Origin: Welwitschia mirabilis
Taxonomy: Eukaryota
Reading direction: 5' to 3'
DNA length: 64,000 nt
NCBI GenBank assembly: GCA_051453625.1
Contig: JBOZIK010000001.1
Span: forward strand, 17,316,760-17,380,759
Shown here: positions 45,041 to 64,000 of the stretch, one piece after another
Layout of the letters: each line of letters starts with the position of its first letter
How positions within the stretch are numbered: position 1 is the stretch's first letter
The notes under the pieces: model-generated
What the model saw: only the letters and a program-made list of their open reading frames with translations
The model's database searches: none
Told to the model about the DNA's origin: nothing
Position numbers and translations under genes: made by a program

Positions 45041-48000
45041 TGTTGTAATGTGTATGTATGTAAGTATTTATATTCAAAAGGATTCTATCATTTATAAAAT
45101 AAGATAAATCTCTCACACAATACAACATCCTAGTATGAGTGGGAATTAACCTGAAATGTCATATTCTCATATAAGACTATGAAATAAGACTTATATTATC
45201 TTTTCCAAAGGAAATGAGAATAAGAAATAAAAAATAATGCAGAAAAATAAATCTGCAATGCAAATGAAAATGTAGTTTTATCTAAATGCAAATGCAAATG
45301 ATCCTAAACTACCTCCTTTCATCTTTAACAAAGGCTACCCTTAATGATCTATATCATCTAAGAAATTGTTACTAGATCAAGAGCAATATAAATCATAAGG
45401 ATCATCTTAGAAACTAATATGCATAAAAGAAAACTAAAGTTTTATATTAAAGAAGTAAAAACATCTAGGTTATAAAATAGCCAAGCTTCAATGAAGGATG
45501 CATAGCTCTCTATCAAAGGCGCGTCTTTATGTAATATTCCAGATGGATCTTCTTCCCTTTGATCTCCTATCATGAGAATTTCCAATGTAATGAAGATGAG
45601 AGGAAGAGTCAAAGAGGAACTTATTTATAACAACTTACAGTAGAAAGCAACAAACAAAAGGTGTGTTAAGATATACTTTTTGTAAATGAAATAGATGAAA
45701 TGGTCAAGGATCACTGTCATAATGGGTTACATGTTAGTATCATCCCAGATATTATCTAAACAATAAGGGAGGTGACAACTTATTTCAAAAGATGACTTAA
45801 AATGATGACTTAGCATTGATTCAACAGTCCACATTAGTAACAAGTAGTATCATTGTCCTGCTTGTTATAGGGATGATAAAGGTGACAATAGTTTTCTTAA
45901 TCATATTCCTAAGGTAAAACTTAGTATTTTTATTAGTAACAATCCTCCAAAGTTCTATATATTAGAATGGGCCTTAAATACATCAAATCTAGGTAAGAAT
46001 TGTACATTTTTGAGATCTTTTATTATTTTTTCAAAATCCTTAGAATTGCATCTAAGCCTATACAAAGGTCCTACAAAATAACTCATAACACTTCATTAAA
46101 TAATCACAAATTGGTAGCACAACATAGCTCCCTACTTAGCCTTTATTAGTTCTTGACAAAAACTAAGGAAAAAGTCATAATTGTGAGCCAATTTTGTTTT
46201 TAAAAGACAAATATGGAATTATAAAATAGGCTCATAAAAACATCACATAGATAAATATTAAGTAATGCATAATGTATATAGAAGATTAAAAATTTTATAT
46301 TATGAAAGAACTAAATTAAGTTAAAAATTTTTAAAAATAAGCCATGAAAATGGATCTCTATCCCCTAAAGAAAAAGCAATACATTCCATATTGGAAACTA
46401 TATAAAAAAAAGTAGATGAGAGTGCAAAAGTAGATAAAAAAGGAAAACTTTCTAAAATGAAGTGCAAAGCTAAGTAATGCCAGTTTTGAAAAATATAGAT
46501 CTATGGAATATTTGGACAAGTAAATAAAAATGCTTCATTACAAAAATAAGTAATAGCAGCAGTTATAACACTAAAAGTAAACATCATAAAATTTATTTAA
46601 AAAACTCAACTAAGTAAGAAATCATGATCATAAGAAACTATAGTAATGACTTTAAAATAACTAATCAAACTATAAAAGAAAATAAAAATAATGGGTATAA
46701 GATAATAGGAATAAACGATAGCTTGTCTATCTAATATTTTAACCTAACACACTCTCATAAAAGAAATCATAACATCACTTGATGTAAAAATGCATCACTT
46801 CATGTGTAAAAAATTCCATTCGATAAGGCAGTCGTTATGATGATGCTAAAGATAAAACAAATGAATAGACCAAAGAATTGCTCAAAAATGAACTCACTTA
46901 TTGGCATCTCAAAACAAAGACCCAAATCTTAAGAAATGAAATGAGCTTATGAAATAGAATAAAAGTATAGAAAACAATCAATGCCTTCTATGATACTAGA
47001 AACACCACTAATTCATAGCCTCGAAATTTTAGTACAACTTTATTATCCATGATGAGAGGAGTGCAGCCACCATCAAAGAAGTAAAAAGCTATGAAGCATG
47101 ACCAACTAACCTCCTAGTAAAGTTTTAACAGCTATCATATTACACTGTCAAAGGCTCCTATCAGAAATATTTACCCCGATGTACTTGCAGTAAGACATCA
47201 TGATAATCATGTTTTTAAAATATCATAAATAAGACATCATGATTTTATTTTACCTCTTTTTTTCCCAAAAACTTGAAAGACACATTCCACATAATCAAAC
47301 ATTCCAAAAGATAAAGGTAAAAGTTGTAAGATAAAGACCAAAAATCTCTTAAATAATCTAAGATTCTTTTACCATTGAGAAAAATGAGCATCTTCCTTTA
47401 AATTGANNNNNNNNNNNNNNNNNNNNNNNNNNNNNNNNNNNNNNNNNNNNNNNNNNNNNNNNNNNNNNNNNNNNNNNNNNNNNNNNNNNNNNNNNNNNNN
47501 NNNNNNTCACTATCATAGTGGGTTACATGTTAGTATCATCCCAACTATCATCCAAACAATAAGTGAGATGATAGCTTATTACAAAAGATGACTTAAAATG
47601 ATGATTTAGCATTGATTCAGCAGTCTACCTTAGCAACAAGTAGTATCATCTTCCTGCTTGTTATAGGGATGATAAAGGTGACAATAATCTTCTTAACCAT
47701 ATTCTTAAGGTAAAACTTAGTAATTTTATTAGTAACATTCCTTTAAAGCTCTATGTATTAGAATGTGCCTTAAATACAACAAATATAGGTAAGAATTACA
47801 CATTTATAAGATCATCTATTATTTTTCCAAAATCCTTAGAATTGCATCTAAGCCTATACAAAGGTCCTATAAAACAACTCATAACACTTCATTAAATAAC
47901 CACAAATGGATAGCACAACATAGCTCTCCACTTAGCCTTTATTAGTCTTTAATAAAAACTAAGCAAAAAACCATAATTGTAAGCCAATTTTGTTTTCAAA

Positions 48001-50770
48001 AGATAAATATGCAATTATAAAATATGCTCATAAAACACATCACACAGATAAATAACAAGTAATGCATATTATATTATGAAAGAACTAAATTAAGTTAAAA
48101 ATTTTTAAAAATAAGCAATGAAAATGGGTCTCAGTACCCTAGAGAAAAAGTAATACATTCTATATTGGAAAATAGAGTAAAAAAAGTAGATGAGAATGAG
48201 AAGGTAGATAAAAAAGGACAATTTTCTAAAATGAAGTGAAAAGCTAAGTAATGCCAGTTTTGAAAAATATAATCTATGAAATATGTTGACAAGTAAATAA
48301 AAATATTTCATTACAAAAATAAGTAAGAGCAGCACTTATAACACTAAAAGTAAACATCATAAAATTTATTTAAAAAACTCAACTAAGAAAGAAATCATGA
48401 TGATAAGAAAATATAGTAATGACTTTAAAATAACTAATCAAACTATAAAAGAAAATAAAAAGAATGGATATAAGATAATAGGAATAAAATATATCTTGTC
48501 TATCTAATATTTTAACCTAACACACTCTCATAAAAGAAATCATAACATAACTTAATGTAAAAATGCATCACTTCATGTGTAAAAAATTCCATTCGATAAG
48601 GTATTCATTATGATGATGCTAAAGATAAAATAAATGAATAGACCAAAGAATTGCTTAAAAATCAACTCACTTATCGGTATCTCAAAACAAAGACCCAAAT
48701 CTTAAGAAATGAAATGAGCTTATGGAATAAACTAAAAGTTTAGAAAATAATCAATGCCTTCTATGATACTAGGAACACCACTAATTCATAAACTCAAAGT
48801 TTTAGTACAACTTTATTATCCATGATGAGGGAAGTGAAGCCACCATTAAAGAAGTAAAAACCTATGAAGCATGATCAACTAATCTCCTAGTGGAGTTTTA
48901 GTAGCTACCATATTACACTGTCAAAGGCTCCTCTCAGAAATATTACCTCGATGTACTTGCAGTAATACATCATGACAACCATGTTTTTAAAATATCACAA
49001 ATAAGATATCATGGTGTTATTTTACCTCTTTTTTTTCAAAAACTTGAAAGACAAATTCCACATGATCAAACATTCCAAAAGAGAAAGGTAAAATTTGTAA
49101 GATAAATACAAAAAAAGGACTCTTAAATAATCTAAGATCCTTTTACCATTGAGAAAAATGAGCATCTTCCTTTAAATTGAAGTTGATGAATGTGTGAATG
49201 TCCTATGATTGAATAAATCCAATCTTACCACCAAAATGCCTAAGTTAAAAGACTAGTCATGGAGATAAATACATAAGTCAAGTTTGAAAAATGATTAAGT
49301 AATGCCATAATAATGTTTAAAGAAAAAAGCTAAGAGAAAATTTAGATGATTTACTCATGTAATTCCAAACTTTTCCCCTCAACTTCCTGAAATTCTTGAA
49401 TAGCCAAGTTAGAAATGTCAACAGAGCCATAAAAATGTATTTTCTCAAAATAATAAAAAATGAAAATTAAGATTTTATTAACTCTCAACCTGCTCATCAT
49501 CCAGATGATAGAGGGGATGATAAGAATAGGGAAGAAAAATAAAAAATTATCAAAAAACACAAAAAATATTAAAAATCTATCAAAACTAACTATCATCCTA
49601 TCTATCGTGAGGATGACAAAGGAGATGACAAANNNNNNNNNNNNNNNNNNNNNNNNNNNNNNNNNNNNNNNNNNNNNNNNNNNNNNNNNNNNNNNNNNNN
49701 NNNNNNNNNNNNNNNNNNNNNNNNNNNNNNNNAAGTAATAGAAAACAAAAATCATGATTTTATTAACTATCATCCTGCTCATCATCCAAATGATAGAGGA
49801 GATGATAAGAATAGGGAAGAAAAATAAGAAATTATCAGAAAACACAAAAAAATATTAAAAATCTAAAAAACTATCAAAACTAACTATCATCATGTCTATT
49901 ATGAGGATGACAAAGGAGATAACAGATTATTATTGAAGAAACAAAAATAGAAACTACATATAAAAATAAAAACTCAAAGAAAAAAAAATGAAAACAAAGA
50001 CTATTAAAACAAAAAGCTGAAAATAAAATTCCAAGGCAAGCAAATTTTTATTTAATTTTTAAATCTAACTCATACTTTTATTAAAAAAAGGAAAAAAATT
50101 AAGGATCTATTTTGGTTGCAAGATATTGCATTCTTTTAGAGAAATAAGCTCCAAACCAGAAATTTACCAATTGATAAAACAGAAAAGAGGTATAATTATT
50201 TTCAAACAAAATCAATTGGATGAAAAGAGGAGTAATGTATANNNNNNNNNNNNNNNNNNNNNNNNNNNNNNNNNNNNNNNNNNNNNNNNNNNNNNNNNNN
50301 NNNNNNNNNNNNNNNNNNNNNNNNNNNNNNNNNNNNNNNNNNNNNNNNNNNNNNNNNNNNNNNNNNNNNNNNNNNNNNNNNNNNNNNNNNNNNNNNNNNN
50401 NNNNNTTATGATTTTTAATTTTTGGCTTATGTGATAGACAATCTCCCTCAAGATGTGAATCTCAGAATTGGACTTCCTTATATACTAAAGATTCTTTCTC
50501 ACTATCAAAGTTGGATGAATCAATGGTTTCTTCAATCCCAAGTTGGTCATCAATAAGCATAGGCTTATATGATTTTATCTTTATTCCTTTAATTGGATGA
50601 TGTTATAGGAATAAAGTTGGTTTCATGTTATTTTTAATGTTTATTTCATCATCTAAATATTTCTCAGTTACATCAAAGACTCTAATCATAAACATTTTAT
50701 TTCCACAATGACATTTCATTATTACTGCTGTTATATCAATGACGTAATGGGCTATTGCATAAAAGGCTNN
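45041..50770 (-). mobile_element. Third family member (element D): 3' LTR 45041-46124, long non-coding 3' region and protease C-terminal remnant; cut by the Tekay element
   Basis: TGTTG...CAACA LTR with PPT context tagctccctactt (duplicate LTR end at 47920, duplicate start at 44310). 50560-50768 reads PFYAIAHYVIDITAVIMKCHCGNKMF and is homologous to 38800-39020. Confidence 0.7.
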
Positions 50771-52457
50771 NNNNNNNNNNNNNNNNNNNNNNNNNNNNNN
50801 NNNNNNNNNNNNNNNNNNNNNNNNNNNNNNGTAGCAAGCTGAAATGACCTACCATGAATTATAAAAATTTTAACTCGCTTTGAGGTCAAAATTTAATCCC
50901 AGGATATCAAAGTTGCAAATTTTAAGTAATGCTCTAATACTCACATGTGATATCCCTAAAAAGATCAATTTAAAGAAAAGGAAGAACTTACTTTCCTTTA
51001 TACAAAAATTATGGATACTTAAACAAGGCTTAAATTTAAATTGTACATGAAATAATATGATAGNNNNNNNNNNNNNNNNNNNNNNNNNNNNNNNNNNNNN
51101 NNNNNNNNNNNNNNNNNNNNNNNNNNNNNNNNNNNNNNNNNNNNNNNNNNNNNNNNNNNNNNNTTACTTTGAAGCCAAAATTTAATCCTAGGATATCACA
51201 GTTGCAAATTTCAAGTAATGCTCTAATACTCACATGTGATATACCTAAAAAGATCAATTTAAAGAAAAGGAAGAACTTACTTTCCTTTATATAAGAATTA
51301 TGGATACCTAAGCAAGGCTTAAATTTAAATTGTACATGAAACAATATGATAGAAAAGGGCCTCTACAAAAGAAAGAACAAGTTTCAATCAATTTCACTAA
51401 AACTAAGTATAAGAGATTTTATCCCACTAAAATGCCATGGTGATGCTAATTTAACCATATGATAAGTAATTCATAAAGGATGTGAGGACCTATTCAATAT
51501 GAGTAGGAAACTTTACTAGGCACTCATGGTATAAAAGAAGCTATAAGAAAATCAACTTTTATTTTATTCATAAGTAATCATCATCAATTCCATAAGAGTG
51601 CAATGTATTACAATTACAATTACCTAAATNNNNNNNNNNATTATAAGAGGAGAAATTTGATGGCCAAGACTAGACTAATTATTAAATTCTATGGTAATAG
51701 CAAAATGTTTGCACTTATTAGGAATTAGACTAGGGATCTCTTCTTTTCTAAACTATCTAATAAATAATTATGCTAATGCTTTCATCTGAAAATTCTATTG
51801 ATGCAAAATTATAAGAAGGAAGGCCACCTTATCTTTACCATTTCTTAGCAAGTGAATGCCTATCTTGAAACCCCATAACTACAATGCAGTTTCTTTAAGA
51901 GCTCATAATGATAGTGTAGATTATTTGAGGATCTCTCCACTACAATGTAGCTAGAAGCTAGAAAGATAAACACTTGGCAATGGGAGAGGAAAAATGCACA
52001 GGGAGAAAATTCATTATGTGAGATTTCTAACATCACTTTACAAGCAAAATGTAGCAGATTTTTGATCATTTAGCTCATCGAGTAGGACCTCTTCTTCTTA
52101 GATAATGGTTTTTTCAGGCTAGGGAAGTTTAAGATGAGGTATTTATCCTATTGTTGGAAGTTTAAGAAACCATTTTTTGAGTGTGAAAGCATCTGAAATG
52201 CTCTAAAATGTTTCTACAATAGGGGTTTATAATGTGTTAAGAAAAAAAATGTTTTCTTGCAGGAAAGCGATTCTAACTTTTAGCTGCATTCAACGCTATC
52301 TAGTGCATCCTGATCTCACTTCTTTTTAGGCTAAATTAATTCAAAATCCTCTAAAACACATAAGGAAATCATTGTGTTGAAAATCCTAAAATGTTCAAAC
52401 TACAGTCTCAACAGAAACATGGGATACAATGAAGGGTAACACTCCTTAACTAATAAC

Positions 52458-52529
52458 GGTTTGGTGCTGTAATGGAAAGAGGCTGTTATTGTAAGAAGAA
52501 GGGCAGTGGTTCAAATCCCACCAACACCA
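52458..52529 (+). ncRNA. tRNA-like Pol III cassette inside the LTR (not a functional tRNA); second copy at ~61860-61924
   Basis: A box TGCTGTAATGG (TGGTGTAATGG in the other LTR), B box GGTTCAAATCC 32 bp later in a GTGG/CCAC T-arm-like stem, ending ...CACCA. The anticodon arm does not pair. Confidence 0.55.
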
Positions 52530-53406
52530 AAATGGTCCACAATTTGTTTAAATAGAACATCCCTCCTATTTTACATTTAAAATCTTATTTTAAGGTTTAA
52601 ATTATAGTTATGGGTATTACCTTTTCTTTATTTAATCCAACATTTAAGATTTCATCAAAATTGAGGGGCATCAGCTAATACCCATTCTCCAAGCTTATAA
52701 AATTATTACATTAAATAATTTTCATTTTAATCATGATGATTCTTAAAATTTCAAAAAAAACATCATTACCAAATATTTTCACATTACATAACCTTATCAT
52801 TAGATAACAAAAATAGCTCATAACATAAGGACAAGATTCAAGTTCCTTTAATAGATAATAATTGAAAATCTTCAAATAATAGATTTTATTGCAAACCTAT
52901 AGAAGGAAAAAAATCATTCCAAGTATCAATTTTTTTCCCCAACAATCTTCAATACTGCAAGCCACATCCAAAAAGGAAAATAAAATTGGTTTCATAATAA
53001 TAATAAGTACTGCAAACTACACAAACAAAAATAGAGTTTGTCTCATAATAATAATTAACACACTGAATACTTAAGAATTTAGAAATTGAACTCTAATAAC
53101 CCAAAGGAGGTACATTTAATTAAAATATTCTCCACCATTTTAAATTCATCATTCCTTCATAACGCATGTCATCTCAACAATTAAGCTCCATATTTTTCAC
53201 CTGTTACAAAAGAGTATGGGATGAGAACTGTGAAAATCTCATAGCCTCTAGTATGGCCTAGGAAAGAATAGGTATTTGACAAGATACTTCAATGATTGAG
53301 ATGATAAGGAAAAGTTTAAGACTTTTAATAAATCCAAGACATACACAAATAATGAATTCATGGTTATGTACAAAAGTATTAAATATGTAATCTCCATTAT
53401 TAATAA

Positions 53407-53738
53407 CTTCATTGCCTCATTCGATGATCTATGAAGCCCACTATGTAATTTGGTAATATATGGTTTTCCAATAATATTTAACTTCACTACCTTATTTGAT
53501 GATCTGTGAAACTCACTACCTCATTCGACGATCTATGGTACTCTCAATTATCATCAACTTCATTGCCTTATTTGCTGATCTGTAGGACTCTCAATTATCA
53601 TCAAATTCATTGCCTTATTTGGTGATCTGTGAAGTCCACTACCTCATTTCGAGATTTGTAGTAATATGATATTTCCATTGCCTCATTAAGCAATCTATGA
53701 GATTCTCTCTTCACTGCCTGATTTGGTGATCTATGAAG
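53407..53738. repeat. Degenerate tandem array in the 3' LTR, core CACTGCCTCATTTGGCGATCT(G/A)TG, about 9 units
   Basis: Directly visible repeats with short, reused linkers (aagtc, gtactctcaattatcatcaa). Confidence 0.85.
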
Positions 53739-54126
53739 TATAGACAAAATAATGTTATAAAGCTAAAGAAGTTTAACTACAATAATATACCTTACTAAGA
53801 GGATAACTTAATGGATAAATTTTCTCATAAATGTTTGTCTTATATAATATGATAGTTCAAGAAATCGAGGATAATTCGATAGAGATGAGATATGTATTAA
53901 CATAGAGTTTTTCATTATTCAAGTAACACATGATTTAGTAACTATCTTACATGAATGGATACACATCAATTTCAATAAGCAAATGCATAAAAAGTAAAGG
54001 ACCATACCAATTTTTAAGAATAACTCAAGATCTTTACAAGTCTTCAAGGCTTTTCTGGCTCTAAAACTTGGTAGAAAAAGATTCTCCAAAAAGAATGAAA
54101 GTGAGGAAAAAGGAGGAGGAGGGTTC

Positions 54127-54134
54127 TATTTGTA
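54127..54134 (-). promoter_or_regulatory. Likely LTR TATA box (eroded, TACAAATA)
   Basis: Minus strand reads TACAAATAGAACCC followed by a CT-rich tract, the usual LTR promoter layout. Confidence 0.45.
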
Positions 54135-54619
54135 ATTAAGATTTGGTGGAATGTGAAAAGTCATAAGAATATGAGGATAAATGAAAGTTGGCAAAGATTC
54201 CATACATTTGAAGATAAAATATCATGAATGACGGTAGTTAAGAGAGGGGTTACATAACATCTCATAAATGATTGACTCATCATTGATTGCTTTTAATAAT
54301 ATAAATAAGATAAATGCTTCACATTTCATAATGAGAAAAAGGAATAAATAGCATGTCTTGACATTCAATTACATAAGTGAATAAAAGATATCATTTCCAC
54401 CACTAGAGCATATAAAAATTTGGTACAAAGATTTATTGAAAAGGTATTCATATTACAACTCAATAGTACTACATAGTAGTTACAATAATTAGGGTTTTAA
54501 GTAATTAAAAATTTTTCAATTATTTCTTAAAAAATAACTTTCAATTATTATAAGAAAAGTAAAAAAAATTGTGGATGTGACATTGCTGATCTCCTTAAAA
54601 AGTTTTATTCTTGAAACTT

Positions 54620-57032
54620 GCTAAGAGGTCAGGTCTCCATTGTGTAATATCTACTTTTTTTCCCAAGTTGCTTCATATATAGATTGATTTAACCACTAAA
54701 CTTTGTATAAAAGCATAGTTTTTCCTCTCAAAACCATCTACTTTCAATCAAGAATTTTAGTTATTTATGCTTTGATTAAATAATCTGGGAGTATGTTAAC
54801 TTCTTGATTTAGGATTACCTTACATTCATCAACCAAGCATTTTCTTAGCAAGGATACATGAAATACGTTATAAAGCATAGATATATGAGGTGGTAAGGCC
54901 AATTCATAAGCAATAGGCCCAATCCCCTTAATAATCTAATAGGGCCCTATAAATCTTGGTGTAACTTTTCCTTTCTTATCAAATCTAAAGACTCATTTAA
55001 AAGGCGAACATTTGAGATAAATGTGATCTCCTTATTGAAGTTCTAATTGCCTTCTTTGATGGTTTGCACACTTAACTTGATGATCCTTTTCCATTTTTAA
55101 TCTATTTCAAATCAATATTATCTTCTCTTCAAGATCTTGAGTGAAAGGAACCCTTAACAGTCTCTTTTCAGCTACATCAAATGATGTAATAGGAGGCCTA
55201 TACATTCTACCATATAAAGCTTCAAAAGGAGCACAACCAATTAAATCTTAATGGCTATTATTATAGGTAAATTTCACTAATGATAAATGATCCATCTAAG
55301 TTCCCCCAAAATCTAGAATTATAGATCTCAGTAAATCCTTCAATATTTAGTTTGTTCTTTTAGTTTGACCATCCATTTGAGGATGAAAGATTATGCTTAA
55401 ATTTAAATTGGTTTCCAACTCATGATGAAAAGAAGTCCAAAATCCTTATGTAAACTTACTATCTCTGTCAAAAATTATCCTCTTTGGTAGACCATGCAAT
55501 CTAACAATGCATCTAATATATTCCTTGGCAATTCTTTCAACTGAATTAGTTGTCTTAACTGGATAAAAGTGTGCACTCTTAGTGGACAAATCAGTTACTA
55601 CAAAAATGGAATCATATCCTTCTTTTAACTTTGATAGATCTATAATAAAATCTATCTCAACTACTTNNNNNNNNNNNNNNNNNNNNNNNNNNNNNNNNNN
55701 NNNNNNNNNNNNNNNNNNNNNNNNNNNNNNNNNNNNNNNNNNNNNNNNNNNNNNNNNNNNNNNNNNATTTAACTACTAAACTTTGTATAAATACATAGTT
55801 TTTCCTCTTAAAACGATCTACTTTTGATCAATAATTTTAATTGATTGAGCTTTGATTAAACAATCTGGGAGTATGTTAATTTCTTGATTCAGGATTACCT
55901 TACATTCATCAGCCAAACATCTCCTTAGCAAGGATACATGAAAGCCATTATGAAGCATAGATAGATGAGGTGGTAAGGCCAATTCATAAGCAATAGGCCC
56001 AATCCTCTTAATAATCTAATAGGGACCTATAAATCTTGGTGTAACTTTTCCTTTCTTATCAAATCTAAAGACTCCTTTAAAAGGTGAACATTTGAGATAA
56101 ATGTGATCTCCTTTTCGAAATTCTAATTTCCTCCTTTAATGGTTTGCACACTTAGCTTGATGATCCTTTTCCATCTTTAACCTATTTTGAATTAATATTA
56201 TCTTCTCTTTAAGATCTTGAGTGGAAGAAACCCTTAATAGTCTCTTGTCAGCTACATCAAACCATGTAATAGAAGGGCTATACCTTCTACCATATAAAGC
56301 TTCAAAAGGGCACAACCAATAAATTCTTAATGGCTATTATTGTAGGTAAATTCCACTAATGTCAAATGATCCATCCAAGATTCCCTAAAATCTAGAATTA
56401 TAGATCTCAATAAATCCTTTAAGATTTAGTTTGTTATTTTAGTTTGACCACCCATCTGAGGGCAAAAGGCTATACTTCAATTTAAGTTTGTATTTAAGTT
56501 TGTTCCCAAATCATGATGGAAAGAAGTCCAAAATCCTGATGTAAACTTACTATCTCTGTTAGAAATTATCCTCTTTGGTACACCATGCAATCTAACAATG
56601 CATCTAACATATTCCTTAGTAATTCTTTCAACTAAATCAGTTGTCTTAACTAGACAAAAGTGTGCACTCTTAGTTAACAAATCAGTTACTACAAAAATGG
56701 AATCATATCCTTCTTTTGACTTTGATAGACCTATAATAGAATCCATCCCAACTACTTCCCATTCTGGAATGTCATAAGGATATAAAATTTTAGCTAGGTA
56801 TTAATGTTTAGCTTTTATCAATTAGCAAATCATGCATTTTGATACATAATCCATAATTTTTTACTTCATTCCTAGCCACCAAAAGTGTTATTTGATGCCC
56901 TTATACATCTTGTTAACTTTGGGATGGATAGCATATCAAGTACTATGGAACTCCTTATAAATGATTTTCTTTACTTGGTCCTTATTTGTTATTATTATCC
57001 TTCCCAAATAAGAAAGAATTCCATTAGTTGAA
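54620..57032 (-). pseudogene. pol: Integrase with GPY/F motif and chromodomain; C-terminal ~950 bp present twice across the 55647-55766 gap
   Basis: HHCC remnant YAIHPKVNKMY...FWWLGMK...SKCMIC, ORF 56477-56746 (GYDSIFVVTDLLTKSAHF...IVRLHGVPKRIISNRDSKFTS), PRFIGPY, and chromodomain KILD*K*MVLRGKTMLLYKV*WLNQSIYEATWE. Confidence 0.95.
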
Positions 57033-57466
57033 NNNNNNNNNNNNNNNNNNNNNNNNNNNNNNNNNNNNNNNNNNNNNNNNNNNNNNNNNNNNNNNNNNNN
57101 NNNNNNNNNNNNNNNNNNNNNNNNNNNNNNNNNNNNNNNNNNNNNNNNNNNNNNNNNNNNNNNNNNNNNNNNNNNNNNNNNNNNNNNNNNNNNNNNNNNN
57201 NNNNNNNNNNNNNNNNNNNNNNNNNNNNNNNNNNNNNNNNNNNNNNNNNNNNNNNNNNNNNNNNNNNNNNNNNNNNNNNNNNNNNNNNNNNNNNNNNNNN
57301 NNNNNNNNNNNNNNNNNNNNNNNNNNNNNNNNNNNNNNNNNNNNNNNNNNNNNNNNNNNNNNNNNNNNNNNNNNNNNNNNNNNNNNNNNNNNNNNNNNNN
57401 NNNNNNNNNNNNNNNNNNNNNNNNNNNNNNNNNNNNNNNNNNNNNNNNNNNNNNNNNNNNNNNNNN

Positions 57467-58520
57467 TCCGTGCCTAGAAGCATCTGTAAAAACTATATAG
57501 ATTTTTCCTAGTTCTGCCATTTTTAAAATAGAATTAGATATAAGTGCTTCCTTTAGTCTTTGAAATGCTTCATCACATTGGGCAGTCTGAACAAAAGAAT
57601 GATCCTTTCTTAGCAATATTATAAGAGGGACTACAATCTTATAAAAGTTTGGAATGAACCTCTGATAATATCCTGCTAAACCAAGAAAAATCCTCACCTC
57701 TATTACTGATTTAGGATTAGGTCAATCTACCACTGCTTGTACTTTATCATTGTCTATGGTAATTCCTTCCTTAGATATCACATGTCCTAAAACTTTAATC
57801 TCAGTTAACCAAAATTCACATTTTTTAAGGTTGGCATAGAAATTTTTTCTTTCTCAATATCTCTAACATAATTCATAGATGATTTTCATGCTATTCCTTA
57901 ATTGTTGAATATATTAGTATATCATCAATGAATACCACCACAAATTCATCAAGGTAAGCTCAAAAAATATTGTTCATTATCATCATAAATGTAGTAGGTG
58001 CTTTGGTGAGTCCAAATGGTACTACTTGAAATTCATAATTACCATACCTCATATAAAATATCATTTTGCAAATGTCTTCTTCATTTATTGTAAGTTGGTA
58101 ATATCCTGATTTAAGGTCAATATTTGATAAAAAATTTGTAAATTTTAGTTAATCAAAAAGGTCTTCTATCCTAGGCAAGAGATAACTATTCTTAATTATC
58201 ACCCTGTTCAAAATTCTGAAGTTCACACACAACCTTAAACCACTATCCTTTTTCTTAACAAATAGAACTGGCACACCCTAAGGAGAAATACTTTTTCTAA
58301 TTAACTCCTTATCTAGAAGTGCTATTAATTATGTTTTTAATTCTACTAATTCTATAAAAGGAATTCTATAAGGTGCTCTTGAAATTTGTTCTGATCCTTC
58401 TTTAAAGATTATCTCGAAGTCCTCTACCCTTTTGGATGGATAACCTGACAAGTCTTTTGCAAAACCATCTAAATACTCTTGTGCTACTAAAATGTTCAAT
58501 AAGTTTGGCTCATGATGCAA
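57467..58520 (-). pseudogene. pol: Ty3/gypsy reverse transcriptase and RNase H start
   Basis: ISRAPYRI, VPFGLTKAP, YLDEFVVVFIDDILIYS (~57905-57958), and FLGLAGYYQRFIPNF...VFTDAS. Confidence 0.95.
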
Positions 58521-58559
58521 AGAATGATTAAATTTAATGATCCTAAAAGCTTATCCATG

Positions 58560-60419
58560 TCTGACTTCTCTTTTTATGCCTACTTTTCATTATTTGTTCA
58601 AACATGGGATTTGACAAAATTGGCAAATTCATTCTTCTTCCTTTAGAATCTATCACTAACATCATTCTATGGTAGTAATCTATCTATGCCTTATTACTTT
58701 ACAACCAATTCATTCCTAAAATAATATCAAAGTAATCCAGCTTCAAAACTAGTAATTGAATTATGAAATTTAAATCATCAATTTGTAACATACACAAAGG
58801 AGTTTACCANNNNNNNNNNNNNNNNNNNNNNNNNNNNNNNNNNNNNNNNNNNNNNNNNNNNNNNNNNNNNNNNNNNNNNNNNNNNNNNNNNNNNNNNNNN
58901 NNNNNNNNNTTTTAAAAAAACATCTAAATACTCTTATGCTACTAAAATGTTCAATAAGTTTGGCTCATGATTCAAAGAATGATTAAATTTAACGATCCTA
59001 AAAACTTATCCACTTCTGACTTCTCTTTTTATGCCTACTTGTCATTAGTTATTTAGACACGGGATCTGACAAAATTAGCAAATTCATTCTTCTTTCTTTA
59101 GAATCTATCACTGACATCCTTCTATGGTAGTAATCTATTTGTGCCTTATTATCTCACAACCAATTCATTCCTAAAATAATATCAAAGTAACCTAGCTTCA
59201 AAACTAGTAATTAAATTCTAAAATTTAAATCATCAATTTGTAACATACAAAAAGGAGTGTACCAATTATTTTTAGTTGTCTNNNNNNNNNNNNNNNNNNN
59301 NNNNNNNNNNNNNNNNNNNNNNNNNNNNNNNNNNNNNNNNNNNNNNNNNNNNNNNNNNNNNNNNNNNNNNNNNNNNNNNNNGTTGTCTTCCATCTAGAAG
59401 TTCTACAATTAATTACTTAGTCTTCAAAAGTTTTAAGAATATCTTACTAGCTCTCTCATAGAAAATGAAGGAATCGAATGCACTAAGGTCTAATAAAAAT
59501 TTCACAAGAAAGTTTAATAATGTACTTGAAGTTTGTAAAATTACTTTTAGTTGGGTGCCTTCTTTGGAAACTAAGGCATACGACTTACTAATATCTAAAT
59601 AAGTAGATTCCCCCTTCTTCTTAGGGTACTCTCTGAGATAGTGGGGTCCTTGGTNNNGAAAACACTTTACATTTCTGATATTAGTAATCTGATTATTTCT
59701 TAGTGGTCTATCCATTTTGCCTCTTTCTCTAGTTGGTTGAAATGTTTCCTTGTTGTTGACTTTGGTCATATTCACCTTGGCTCTTTTTCTGAATAAATCT
59801 ATACTTGGATTAAAGGGCTTTTTCCATGGTTAAATCCTTCTCATCTCATGAGGCATCTTTCTTTTATCTCTAATATTTTTATTTGTGGACCATGATCCTT
59901 CACTGATTCTTGCTTTTTCTAATGCTTCTACAATGGTTTTAGGTTGGAATAATTTAACTTGATTTTAAATTGCAAGATGTAACCCAGCCATATGAACCTT
60001 TAATTCTTTTCTTTCTACTAACTTAGGAACATATCATAAAAGTTCTATGAATTTGTATTCATATTAAGCTATAGTCATTGATTCCTCTCTAAGGCCATAG
60101 AATTCATTGGCTTTTGAATTTAAGAAAAACACTGAAATATAACTGCCTTTAAATCTTTCTTCAAATGCCTCCCAAGAAATAAATGAAGGAAGAGGTATTT
60201 GAAGTTTTCTACATCCCACCATAAGGCTGCTTCTTTCATAGGCTAATGGATTACTAGTAAATCTTTTATTTAGAGGTAAAATCAAATAAATCCAGTTCTC
60301 TTTTTATAGAGATTAACTAAGCTTCTGCATCAGCTATGTTATCAACACCCATAAAAGTTGGAGGGTTTATTCTTTTAAATTGCATCATTAATTTCTTGAT
60401 AGATTCACCACTTTCTCTA
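58560..60419 (-). pseudogene. gag: gag (Retrotrans_gag, zinc knuckle) and aspartic protease of the Tekay element
   Basis: FKRINPPTFMG, ISWEAFEERF...KANEFYGLREESMTIA, KCF..QGPHYLREYP, LLDLSAFDSFI (cf. LFDSGASHSFI) and FDIILGMNWL. Confidence 0.9.
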
Positions 60420-60730
60420 NNNNNNNNNNNNNNNNNNNNNNNNNNNNNNNNNNNNNNNNNNNNNNNNNNNNNNNNNNNNNNNNNNNNNNNNNNNNNNNNN
60501 NNNNNNNNNNNNNNNNNNNNNNNNNNNNNNNNNNNNNNNNNNNNNNNNNNNNNNNNNNNNNNNNNNNNNNNNNNNNNNNNNNNNNNNNNNNNNNNNNNNN
60601 NNNNNNNNNNNNNNNNNNNNNNNNNNNNNNNNNNNNNNNNNNNNNNNNNNNNNNNNNNNNNNNNNNNNNNNNNNNNNNNNNNNNNNNNNNNNNNNNNNNN
60701 NNNNNNNNNNNNNNNNNNNNNNNNNNNNNN

Positions 60731-63700
60731 NAAAACGAAATGACCCACCCATGAATTATGAAGATTTTAACTTACTTCAAGGCCAAAATTTAATCCCAAG
60801 ATATCACAGTTACAAATTTCAAGTAATGCTCTTATACTCATATGTGATATCCCTAAAAAGATCAATTTGAAGAAAAGGAAAAACTTACATTCCTTTATAT
60901 AAGAATTATGAGTACTTAAGTAAGGCTTAAATTTAAATTGCACATGAAATAATATGATAGAAAGGGCCTCTACAAAAGAAAGAAAAAGTTTCAATCAATT
61001 TCATTAAANNNNNNNNNNNNNNNNNNNNNNNNNNNNNNNNNNNNNNNNNNNNNNNNNNNNNNNNNNNNNNNNNNNNNNNNNNNNNNNNNNNNNNNNNNNN
61101 NNNNNNNNNNNNNNNNNNNNNNNNNNNNNNNNNNNNNNNNNNNNNNNNNNNNNNNNNNNNNNNNNNNNNNNNNNNNNNNNNNNNNNNNNNNNNNNNNNNN
61201 NNNNNNNNNNNNNNNNNNNNNNNNNNNNNNNNNNNNNNNNNNNNNNNNNNNNNNNNNNNNNNNNNNNNNNNNNNNNNNNNNNNNNNNNNNNNNNNNNNNN
61301 NNNNNNNNNNNNNNNNNNNNNNNNNNNNNNNNNNNNNNNNNNNNNNNNNNNNNNNNNNNNNNNNNNNNNNNNNNNNNNNNNNNNNNNNNNNNNNNNNNNN
61401 NNNNNNNNNNNNNNNNNNNNNNNNNNNNNNNNNNNNNNNNNNNNNNNNNNNNNNNNNNNNNNNNNNNNNNNNNNNNNNNNNNNNNNNNNNNNNNNNNNNN
61501 NNNNNNNNNNNNNNNNNNNNNNNNNNNNNNNNNNNNNNNNNNNNNNNNNNNNNNNNNNNNNNNNNNNNNNNNNNNNNNNNNNNNNNNNNNNNNNNNNNNN
61601 NNNNNNNNNNNNNNNNNNNNNNNNNNNNNNNNNNNNNNNNNNNNNNNNNNNNNNNNNNNNNNNNNNNNNNNNNNNNNNNNNNNNNNNNNNNNNNNNNNNN
61701 CTAGTGCACCCTAATCTTGATACATTTTAGGCTGAATCAAATCAAAATTCTTCAAAACACATAAGGGAATCATCGCATTGGAAACCCTACAAATGTTCAG
61801 ACTATAGTCTCAACAGAAATGTGGCATACAATGAAGGGTAACGCTCCTTAACCAATAGCATTTTAGTGGTGTAATGGAAAGAGGCGATTATGATAAGAAA
61901 GTGGTTTAAATCCCACCACCACCAAAATGGTCCACAATTTGTTTAAATAGAACATCTCTCCTATTTTACATTTAAAATGTTATTTTAAGGTATAAATTAC
62001 AGTTATGGGTATTACCTTTCATTATTACATTAAATACTTCCCATTTGAATCATGATGATTCTTAAAATTTCCAAAAAAAATCATTACCAAAGATTTCCAC
62101 ATTTCATAACCTTATCATTAGATGACAAATATAGCTCATAACATAAGGTTAAGATTCAAGTTCCTTTACCAAATAATAATTAAAAATCTTCAAAGAACAG
62201 ATTTGATTAGAAACCTATAGAAGAAAAAACATCATTCCAAGTATTAATTTTTTTTTCTCAACAATCTTCAAAACTACAAGCCACACCCAAAAAGAAAAAT
62301 AGATTTGATCTCACAATAACAACAAGTACTGTAAACTACACAAAAGAAAATAGAGGCTGTCTCATAATAAAAATTAATGTAATAAATACTTAAGCATTTA
62401 GAAATTGAAATCCAATAGCCCAAAAGAGGTACATTTAATCAAAATATTCTTCACCATTTTAGATCCATCAATCCTTCATAATTCATGCCATCTTAGCAAT
62501 TAGGCTCCATATTTTTCACTTGTCACAAAAGAGTATGGGATAAGAACTATGAAAATCTCATAGCCCCCAGTATGGCCCAGGCAAGAATAGGTATTTGAGA
62601 AGATACTTCAAGGACCAAGATGACAAGAAAAAGTTCAAGACTTTCAAGAAATCCAAGACATACACAGATAATGAGCTCATGGTTGTANNNNNNNNNNNNN
62701 NNNNNNNNNNNNNNNNNNNNNNNNNNNNNNNNNNNNNNNNNNNNNNNNNNNNNNNNNNNNNNNNNNNNNNNNNNNNNNNNNNNNNNNAATTATAGTTATG
62801 GATATTACCTTTCCTTTATTCAATCCAATATTTAAGCTTTCATAAAAACTAAGGGGCATTACCTAATACCCATTCTCCAAGATTACAAAATTATTATATT
62901 AAATACTTCCATTTAAACCATGATGATTCTTATAATTTTCAAAAAAAATCATTACCAAAGATTTCCACATTTCATAATCTTATCATTAGATGACAAAAAT
63001 AGCTCATAACATAAGGATAAGATTCAAGTTTCTTTATCGAATAATAATTAAAAATCTTCAAATAACATATTTTATTGCAAACCTATAAAAGAAAATACAT
63101 CATTTCAAGTATCAATTTTTTTTTCCAACAATCTTTAAAACTACAAACCACACCCAAAAAGGAAAATAGATTTGGTCTCATAATAATAACAAGTACTGTA
63201 AACTACTCAAACGAAAATAGAGTCTATCTCATAATAATAATTAATGCATTGAATACTTAAGCATTTAAAAATTGAAATACAATAGCCCAAAATAGGTACA
63301 TTTAATTAAAATATTCTCCATTATTTTAGATCCATCAATCCTTTATAATTCATGCCATATTAGCAATTAGGCTCCATATTTTCACCTGTCAAAAAAGAGT
63401 ATGAGATGAGAACTGTGAAAATCTCACAGCCCCATGTATGGCCCAGGCAAGAATAGGTATTTCATAAGATACTTCTAGGTTCGAGACGATAAGGAAAAGT
63501 TCAAGACTTTTAAGAAATCCAAGATATACACAAATAATAAGCTCACGGTTATGTATGAAAATATCAAATATGTAATCTCCATTATTAATAACTTCACTGC
63601 CTCGTTTGGCAATATATGAAGCCCACTACCTATTTAGCTTCACTGAATTATTTGGTGATTGGTGAAGTCCGCTGCCTCATTTGGCGATCTATGGTATACT

Positions 63701-64000
63701 TAATCATCATCAACTTGACTACCTCATTTGGCAATCTATGCAGCTCACTATCTCATTCAATGATTTGTAATACTCTCAATCATCATTAACTTGATTACCT
63801 TATTTGACAATCTGTGAAGTCCACTACCTCATTTGGCGATCTATGGTAATATGATATCTCCACTGCCTTATTTGATGATTTGTGAAATTTTCTCTTCACT
63901 ACCTCATTTGATGATCTGTGAAGTCTAGACAAAATAATGTTTTAAAGATAAAGAAGTTTGAACATAATAATATACCTTGTCAAGAGAACAACTTCATGGA
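60731..64000 (-). repeat. 5' LTR of the Tekay element (truncated by the window; PBS presumably in the 60420-60730 gap)
   Basis: Matches 50835-53800 in order; includes a gap-flank duplicate 61993-62687 / 62788-63555. Confidence 0.9.
63592..63923. repeat. Tandem array in the 5' LTR, about 10-11 units
   Basis: Same core as 53407-53738, with a different unit and linker arrangement. Confidence 0.85.

Follow-up and report, generated by a model that had tools for sequence, protein, structure and literature searches.

Helenus (TRIMp3) is a non-coding TRIM of 311-1263 bp with tRNA-derived boxes that are thought to be its own promoter, and the available text describes one plant case, from Selaginella (Kojima 2024; PMC10886601). 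In the same text, "not a few" Repbase LTRs are said to resemble parts of tRNAs, and only TRIMs under 1000 bp were kept (PMC10886601); by this size filter, longer cases were possibly seen and then set aside. In the accessible part of another paper, Cassandra and Helenus/Ajax are the only elements for which LTR regions derived from tRNAs are mentioned (PMC13570524). A literature search over titles and abstract openings, with subscription papers and Repbase reports mostly outside its reach, found no paired tRNA-type boxes in autonomous plant LTRs.

The window is the whole 64-kb stretch of Welwitschia mirabilis DNA analysed here, and its tRNA-type boxes are located in an element (Table 1) that is 14.4 kb long, including gaps and duplications, and has gag-pol remnants. 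Judged from its features, the element is a Ty3/gypsy insertion of chromovirus type, with the order RT-RNase H-integrase, TG...CA LTR ends, a 5-bp target-site duplication (TSD), and a tRNA-Met primer-binding site (PBS). The PBS was read in family copies L037 and L039, its place being a gap in the window copy. After the integrase, SH3_Tf2-1 was recognized with E 1e-11 and Chromo with E 0.055, the latter as a weak match on a truncated piece. The RT is 42-69% identical to plant Ty3/gypsy proteins among the 120 matches listed. Tekay, the clade named in the preliminary description, is reported from seed plants only, and clade placement is made by RT/RH/INT phylogeny, according to the available text (PMC6317226). 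Both repeats are LTRs of a single insertion, as an identical 5-bp target duplication is present at the 50840 end and at the far end; the cassette is accordingly carried in both LTRs of one element, as had been claimed. Among metagenome contigs, a search by gag turned up no relative.

Tandem duplications of 0.2-2 kb with 82-95% identity flank many 100-N gaps throughout the window (e.g., 45711-49180, 54687-56757, and 62021-63550), and they are probably contigs of different copies or haplotypes scaffolded together. With so many gap-edge duplications of about 90% identity, details of a single copy are less reliable than family patterns, and the LTR-LTR identity at this locus is a poor clock. TATAWAW was found at the TATA-like site in 8 of the 12 family copies that cover it. 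Because this conserved site lies about 450 bp from the LTR start, the two cassettes described below would both fall within a long R/U5, at distances of 1.6 and 2.3 kb downstream from the likely TATA box. A TATA candidate at 52226, with which the promoter would be between the cassettes, was rejected; it is not conserved across copies, and the conserved site is near 54130.

Table 1. Features of the element and of its cassettes in the window (positions of the 64-kb stretch).
Feature	Position	Strand	Remark
5-bp target-site duplication	50835..50839	.	matched at the other end of the element, about 1.2 kb past the window edge
3' LTR	50840..54582	-	about 3.7 kb including gaps
Cassette 2, sense to element	51702..51782	-	A box 51775-51764, B box 51731-51721, TTTT 51705-51702
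Cassette 1, antisense to element	52458..52530	+	in 3' LTR
A box of cassette 1	52465..52475	+	one mismatch to the generic box in the window copy
B box of cassette 1	52508..52518	+	32-nt spacer from A box
First TTTT after cassette 1	52569..52572	+	50 nt behind B box; predicted Pol III stop
Tandem block, units of about 76 nt	53380..53740	.	65-80% shared with other LTR families; anchor for the homologous place of cassette 1 there
Likely Pol II TATA box	54126..54134	-	mutated in the window copy; about 450 bp from LTR start
Internal region, broken gag-pol	54583..60736	-	gag piece near 60317-60419, RT 57963-58148, RNase H 57467-57721, integrase 56480-56800, SH3_Tf2-1 55821-56015
5' LTR	60737..64000	-	continues past window end; gap 61009-61700 covers the place of cassette 2
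Cassette 1 of 5' LTR	61860..61925	+	A box 61867-61877, B box 61903-61913, 7-nt spacer deletion

Cassette 1 is the sole A+B pair at up to two mismatches in a scan of the window. Its A box, B box, 32-nt spacer, and TTTT run were all located as first described, and so was its antisense orientation to gag-pol, which is on the minus strand. For the copy in the other LTR, the perfect A box and the B box hit by C>T are correct, but the 7-nt deletion that leaves a spacer of 25 nt had been overlooked. The tRNA-like details of the preliminary description fared worse. The T-arm-like stem is one base outside the tRNA register, its 5' side varies among copies as CpG decay would, and T-stem pairing across families is at chance. 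The CCA-like end has its CCA at tRNA positions 71-73, and nuclear plant tRNA genes are not known to encode CCA. Searches for a tRNA were negative, with no tRNA gene found by ARAGORN in the 64-kb window and no tRNA match in Rfam on 52200-52800 with E up to 10. Folding of the unit is at the level of shuffled sequences (z -0.43). Cassette 1 is not a tRNA gene, as the cloverleaf stems are absent. Two motifs near cassette 1 are common in family copies, one resembling a telo-box at 52380-52387, some 80 bp ahead of the cassette, and one resembling site II at 52534-52539, directly behind it; telo-box and site II are linked to promoters of proliferating cells, and the two motifs would be candidates for these. 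In L142 and L177, the B box of cassette 1 and its tail are shortly tandem-duplicated.

In the species' own genome of 6.27 Gb, a 241-base query gave 299 candidates, of which 40 were scored. Family copies were collected by a flank 200 bp away, avoiding selection on the cassette. Among the 30 loci found in this way, one was too short and one was gapped over the site, and the cassette is present in 27 of the remaining 28, in agreement with the view that the family replicated with it. The majority frequency in the family is 0.90 in the A box, 0.92 in the B box, 0.82 in the spacer, and 0.84-0.86 in the flanks. The excess of the boxes over their flanks is modest; shared transversion or gap sites make up 2/45 in the boxes versus 164/1025 elsewhere, with Fisher p 0.02 and permutation p 0.07. 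Within-family box conservation is modest support. The middle part, said to be neither paired nor conserved, is within the family conserved to nearly the same degree as the flanks, and its differences are confined to comparisons between families.

Searches with the cassettes alone (best 40 of 206 and of 74 candidates scored) revealed no free-standing SINE copy among the best 30 + 30 matches. For cassette 1, LTR flank was recognized by BLAST in 28 of the best 30 and the other two end at a contig edge; for cassette 2, it was present on both sides in 28 of the best 30 and on one side in all 30. Dispersed free copies with their own TSD and tail, by which a tRNA-derived SINE would be known, are absent from the best-scored matches, and the unit is not a sporadic SINE insertion, since the best cassette-only matches sit in LTR copies; a diverged free SINE may still exist among the lower-ranking candidates. 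A tRNA family search of the whole genome gave roughly 384,000 first-look candidates, a rough count that may reflect very many tRNA-like repeats.

A second cassette, overlooked in the preliminary description, lies in the same LTR in opposite orientation and 690 bp from cassette 1. It was first met as a sense cassette in family copy L241 of a blind survey. Cassette 2 is decayed in the window copy and recognisable over 43 aligned copies; its B box is CpG-rich and its raw majority frequency is not above that of its flanks. When C>T and G>A are forgiven, both cassettes are kept at up to one mismatch in 41 of the 59 copies covering all four boxes, and in 15 of the 59 when they are not. Divergent pairs 0.7-1.1 kb apart are also present in L253 (both LTRs) and L168 (28 bits). 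Weaker ones, of 14-17 bits, were found in 4/11 loci of another family and in L200, while the reversed control gave one match, of 16.9 bits, in 22 loci. The antisense unit may have arisen through inversion or a second capture.

The cassettes are not confined to the window family. An exact two-box pattern had 40 matches in the genome and none in the reversed control, and in 8 of the 30 fetched pattern loci the spacers and flanks are unrelated to those of the window family. A second box pattern gave 23 matches in further families. Five loci (L174, L176, L180, L198, and L201) have a tandem LTR block common to the window LTR or to each other, with 65-80% identity, and their cassette is at the same offset and in the same orientation; the shared LTR block of several families lies 700-1400 bp from the cassette. 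Both orientations occur, with the cassette sense to gag in L175 and L179 and probably in L164, and antisense units are mostly within the clade of the window element. In the family of L169 and L204, the sense cassette is followed by a TATA-like site after about 780 bp and by a PBS-like motif after 2.6 kb, and a search of 10 kb gave no coding match; the cassette of this family may be situated in U3, in contrast to that of the window family. Two or three PBS-like motifs, 60-180 bp apart, were observed at the boundary of the 5' LTR in the L168 context (L184), L277, L281, and L287.

For the blind survey, 60 chromosomal loci were taken in list order from 150 SH3_Tf2-1 matches, with near neighbours skipped, and 8 kb downstream was scanned. 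An A+B pair at up to two mismatches was present in 11/60 loci. Controls gave 1/60 for reversed sequences, 0.2 on average for shuffled ones, and 0, 0, and 1 when wrong spacers were used. With a matrix made from tRNA genes of the same genome, 18/60 loci were positive versus 3/60 in the control at 18 bits, and 6 versus 0 at 22 bits. The matches in L221, L248, and L252 are probably not LTR cassettes. When 20 loci were traced upstream, an aligned cassette was seen in the two LTR copies of eight; for the others, the partner is gapped, absent, or only flanking. The RT of positive elements is down to 59% identical to that of the window family. In an integrase-end tree of 58 rows, two of the 60 having been dropped for gaps, cassettes are in 0/19 of one long-branch clade and in 17/38 of two others. 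With the dropped rows restored, the counts are 18/40 versus 0/19 (Fisher p 0.0002), with L259 counted by rounding and L224, too close to SH3, left out. The 0/19 covers the 8 kb scanned, and LTRs of that clade may lie beyond it. Cassette presence on the integrase tree is not clustered beyond shuffles (16 changes versus 16.2). The families are related, and binomial p values consequently overstate independence. In family G, collected by flank alone, the unit is present in 15 of 17 usable copies. L294, the partner LTR of L175, has a clean 62-bp deletion of the A box, the spacer, and most of the B box. Its interpretation as an empty site was rejected in favour of deletion, as the terminal part of the B box is still present together with the T-run, and 15/17 relatives carry the unit.

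From the pattern and survey sets, 28 cassettes were chosen, and stems were tested in the 26 usable ones. The distance from A to B is 43-44 nt in 24/28 (scan range 41-46), and a trace of the tRNA variable loop is retained just before the B box. Even where spacers and flanks can no longer be aligned, the 22 box positions and the spacing of the boxes are retained. CAA, which the available text gives as a plant Pol III start motif when directly upstream (PMC13578239), is at -10 to -3 in 9/26 cassettes, with 12% in the background and 10/39 in tRNA genes. Acceptor pairing is 2.50 against a null of 2.67 in cassettes and 6.75 against 3.85 in tRNA genes. The T, D, and anticodon stems are also at the null in the 26 cassettes, and 12 tRNA genes pass the same test strongly. 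An alternative stem of positions 4-9 with 63-68 was discarded (3.00 versus null 2.88). No parent tRNA could be named, as the best local scores vary by set (Arg, Cys, Gln) with small margins among the nine amino-acid types sampled.

The boxes are very probably under constraint, since they are kept across families where spacers and flanks are unrelated, and here the preliminary interpretation is supported. These patterns point to selection on a DNA-level Pol III promoter and not on a tRNA-shaped RNA; a promoter kept while its product is discarded is what one would expect if a Pol III unit is selected for its action on DNA. It is decidedly doubtful that the cassettes are passengers without a use, stemming from old SINE heads or tRNA pseudogenes that U5 had captured. 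The variable-loop trace before the B box with a T-rich tail, the weak within-family excess of conservation, the many relatives scoring negative, and the loss of the unit from one LTR copy through the 62-bp deletion would suit passengers. Passengers decay evenly, yet the box positions and spacing outlast alignable spacers and flanks; moreover, free-standing copies are lacking among the best matches of both searches, and family G keeps the unit in nearly all usable copies. A pure-passenger origin is unlikely, although it may hold for single families.

The units also keep a close T-run, the predicted terminator. TTTT follows within 34 nt of the B box in 20/28 cassettes, compared to 31% in the background and 11/39 in tRNA genes of the same genome, and a T-run is within about 20 nt behind most units. 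The predicted RNA has a median length of 86 nt and a mean fold z of -0.2, with 1/26 below -2, and a hairpin precursor was rejected on this mean. Such complete units could mean that the short Pol III RNAs themselves matter as decoys, small-RNA precursors, or antisense regulators of the element. Simian foamy virus LTRs are described, in the text available, to have Pol III microRNA cassettes of this kind in U3 (PMC3993851). This possibility is unlikely, as neither the sequence nor the structure of the RNA is kept between families, a hairpin signal is absent, and both orientations are used. The antisense RNA of about 110 nt proposed in the preliminary description is weakened for similar reasons; most related cassettes are sense, the sequence and fold of the RNA are not kept, and the LTR holds a divergent pair.

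In six raw mRNA-seq runs, about a quarter of each run being covered, no read fell on either cassette, these libraries being blind to 85-nt RNAs. The window LTR had 29 reads over four runs, none of them on a cassette, and in the LTR of another copy the depth was 0 in both cassette bins in two raw runs. The silence suits old silenced copies and libraries of this type. The tandem block at 53380-53740 and the stretch just before it are common to many LTR families, and most of the few RNA reads are located there, all as partial matches.

The cassettes likely still bind the RNA polymerase III machinery, and they likely act on the element's own chromatin. The reading put forward, tentatively and with slightly more doubt than confidence, is that the two divergent A+B cassettes, kept by a whole clade of autonomous Ty3/gypsy elements, are DNA-level Pol III promoters whose bound complex acts as a chromatin barrier in the manner of a tRNA gene; a TFIIIC barrier was among the options of the preliminary description. 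A tRNA gene or SINE head would have been captured in an ancestral U5. TFIIIC would bind the A and B boxes and then load TFIIIB and Pol III, whose transcript of about 85 nt would end at the T-run. The useful output would be an occupied, open patch of chromatin that holds back silencing between the Pol II promoter, the PBS, and the flanking heterochromatin of a new insertion, and the genomic RNA itself would still come from Pol II. According to the accessible text, the tRNA-gene barrier of fission yeast needs the A box, the B box, and Pol III, is independent of orientation, and does not depend on the RNA product (PMC2040200). The barrier reading was chosen because a barrier needs exactly an A box, a B box, and real transcription, and ignores orientation (PMC2040200). 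A demonstration of tRNA-gene barrier activity in plants was not found in the literature.

Against a barrier, the cassettes lie downstream of the likely TATA box and not around the promoter, and a block of Pol II would hinder the element's own transcript. The same position, inside the putative transcribed U5, favours a bound Pol III complex that serves as a Pol II roadblock, either ending read-through behind the 3' LTR or throttling the element transcript, and so limiting double-stranded RNA and host harm. In yeast, tRNA genes block the passage of Pol II and TFIIIC sites stop or trim Pol II transcripts, as stated in the available text (PMC4228148). A roadblock in the 5' LTR would, however, cost the element its full-length RNA, and this explanation seems quite unlikely.

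In many families, the sense cassette is situated about 0.45-1.7 kb upstream of the PBS, where it might drive element RNA by Pol III, as in Cassandra or as proposed for Helenus, perhaps for short non-autonomous derivatives. This is very improbable. The elements are at least 10 kb long with a likely Pol II TATA box, the antisense unit faces away from the element body, and because of the T-runs Pol III would be unable to make a 10-kb genomic RNA. The close T-run and the likely TATA box argue against a Pol III element RNA of the Helenus type. These coding elements are too long for Pol III, and their cassettes would hence need another use.

Returning to the barrier, a wider version holds that a large clade of autonomous plant chromoviruses carries portable tRNA-gene insulators. 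Each element would have in U5 one or two Pol III genes reduced to essentials, and these would recruit host TFIIIC and Pol III and keep new insertions open in heterochromatin. This version is rather doubtful. If true, these elements would counter silencing through a device encoded in cis instead of through a dedicated protein, and TRIMs of the Helenus type could be miniature descendants of it. If the chromatin effect is true, retrotransposons would have a new route of resistance to silencing, and whether tRNA genes act as barriers in plants would be open to a natural test. Such sites, numbering in the hundreds to thousands, could also titrate TFIIIC and mislead the annotation of tRNAs where plant genomes are large.

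Compared with described systems, the window element resembles Helenus in tRNA-derived sequence in both LTRs, with A and B boxes, in conservation limited to these boxes, and in the lack of a functional tRNA. It differs from this short non-coding TRIM of about 0.3-1.3 kb in its 14.4-kb size and its gag-pol coding. Its LTRs measure 3.7 kb, have a likely Pol II TATA box, and contain two cassettes in divergent orientation, and most units are directly followed by a T-run. With Cassandra TRIMs, it has in common an internal Pol III promoter and a terminator that plant LTRs have retained, but according to the accessible text Cassandra has a 5S-type promoter, is non-autonomous, and its promoter was shown to drive element RNA (PMC10886601). 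Foamy-virus LTR cassettes are, in the text available, likewise A/B-box Pol III units with a T-run, and the long LTR in which they are located belongs to an autonomous retroelement that relies on Pol II for its genome; they are in U3 and give hairpin precursors, whereas the window cassettes would be in U5, lack a hairpin, have tRNA-like spacing, and occur in both orientations (PMC3993851). Fission yeast barriers are host tRNA genes at centromeres and were shown experimentally, as the available text reports, while the units here are degenerate, belong to a mobile element, and are known from sequence (PMC2040200). Pol III promoters are known from the LTRs of tiny non-coding plant TRIMs, for which the element RNA is the supposed product; here they are retained, paired and in both orientations, in the long LTRs of coding elements.
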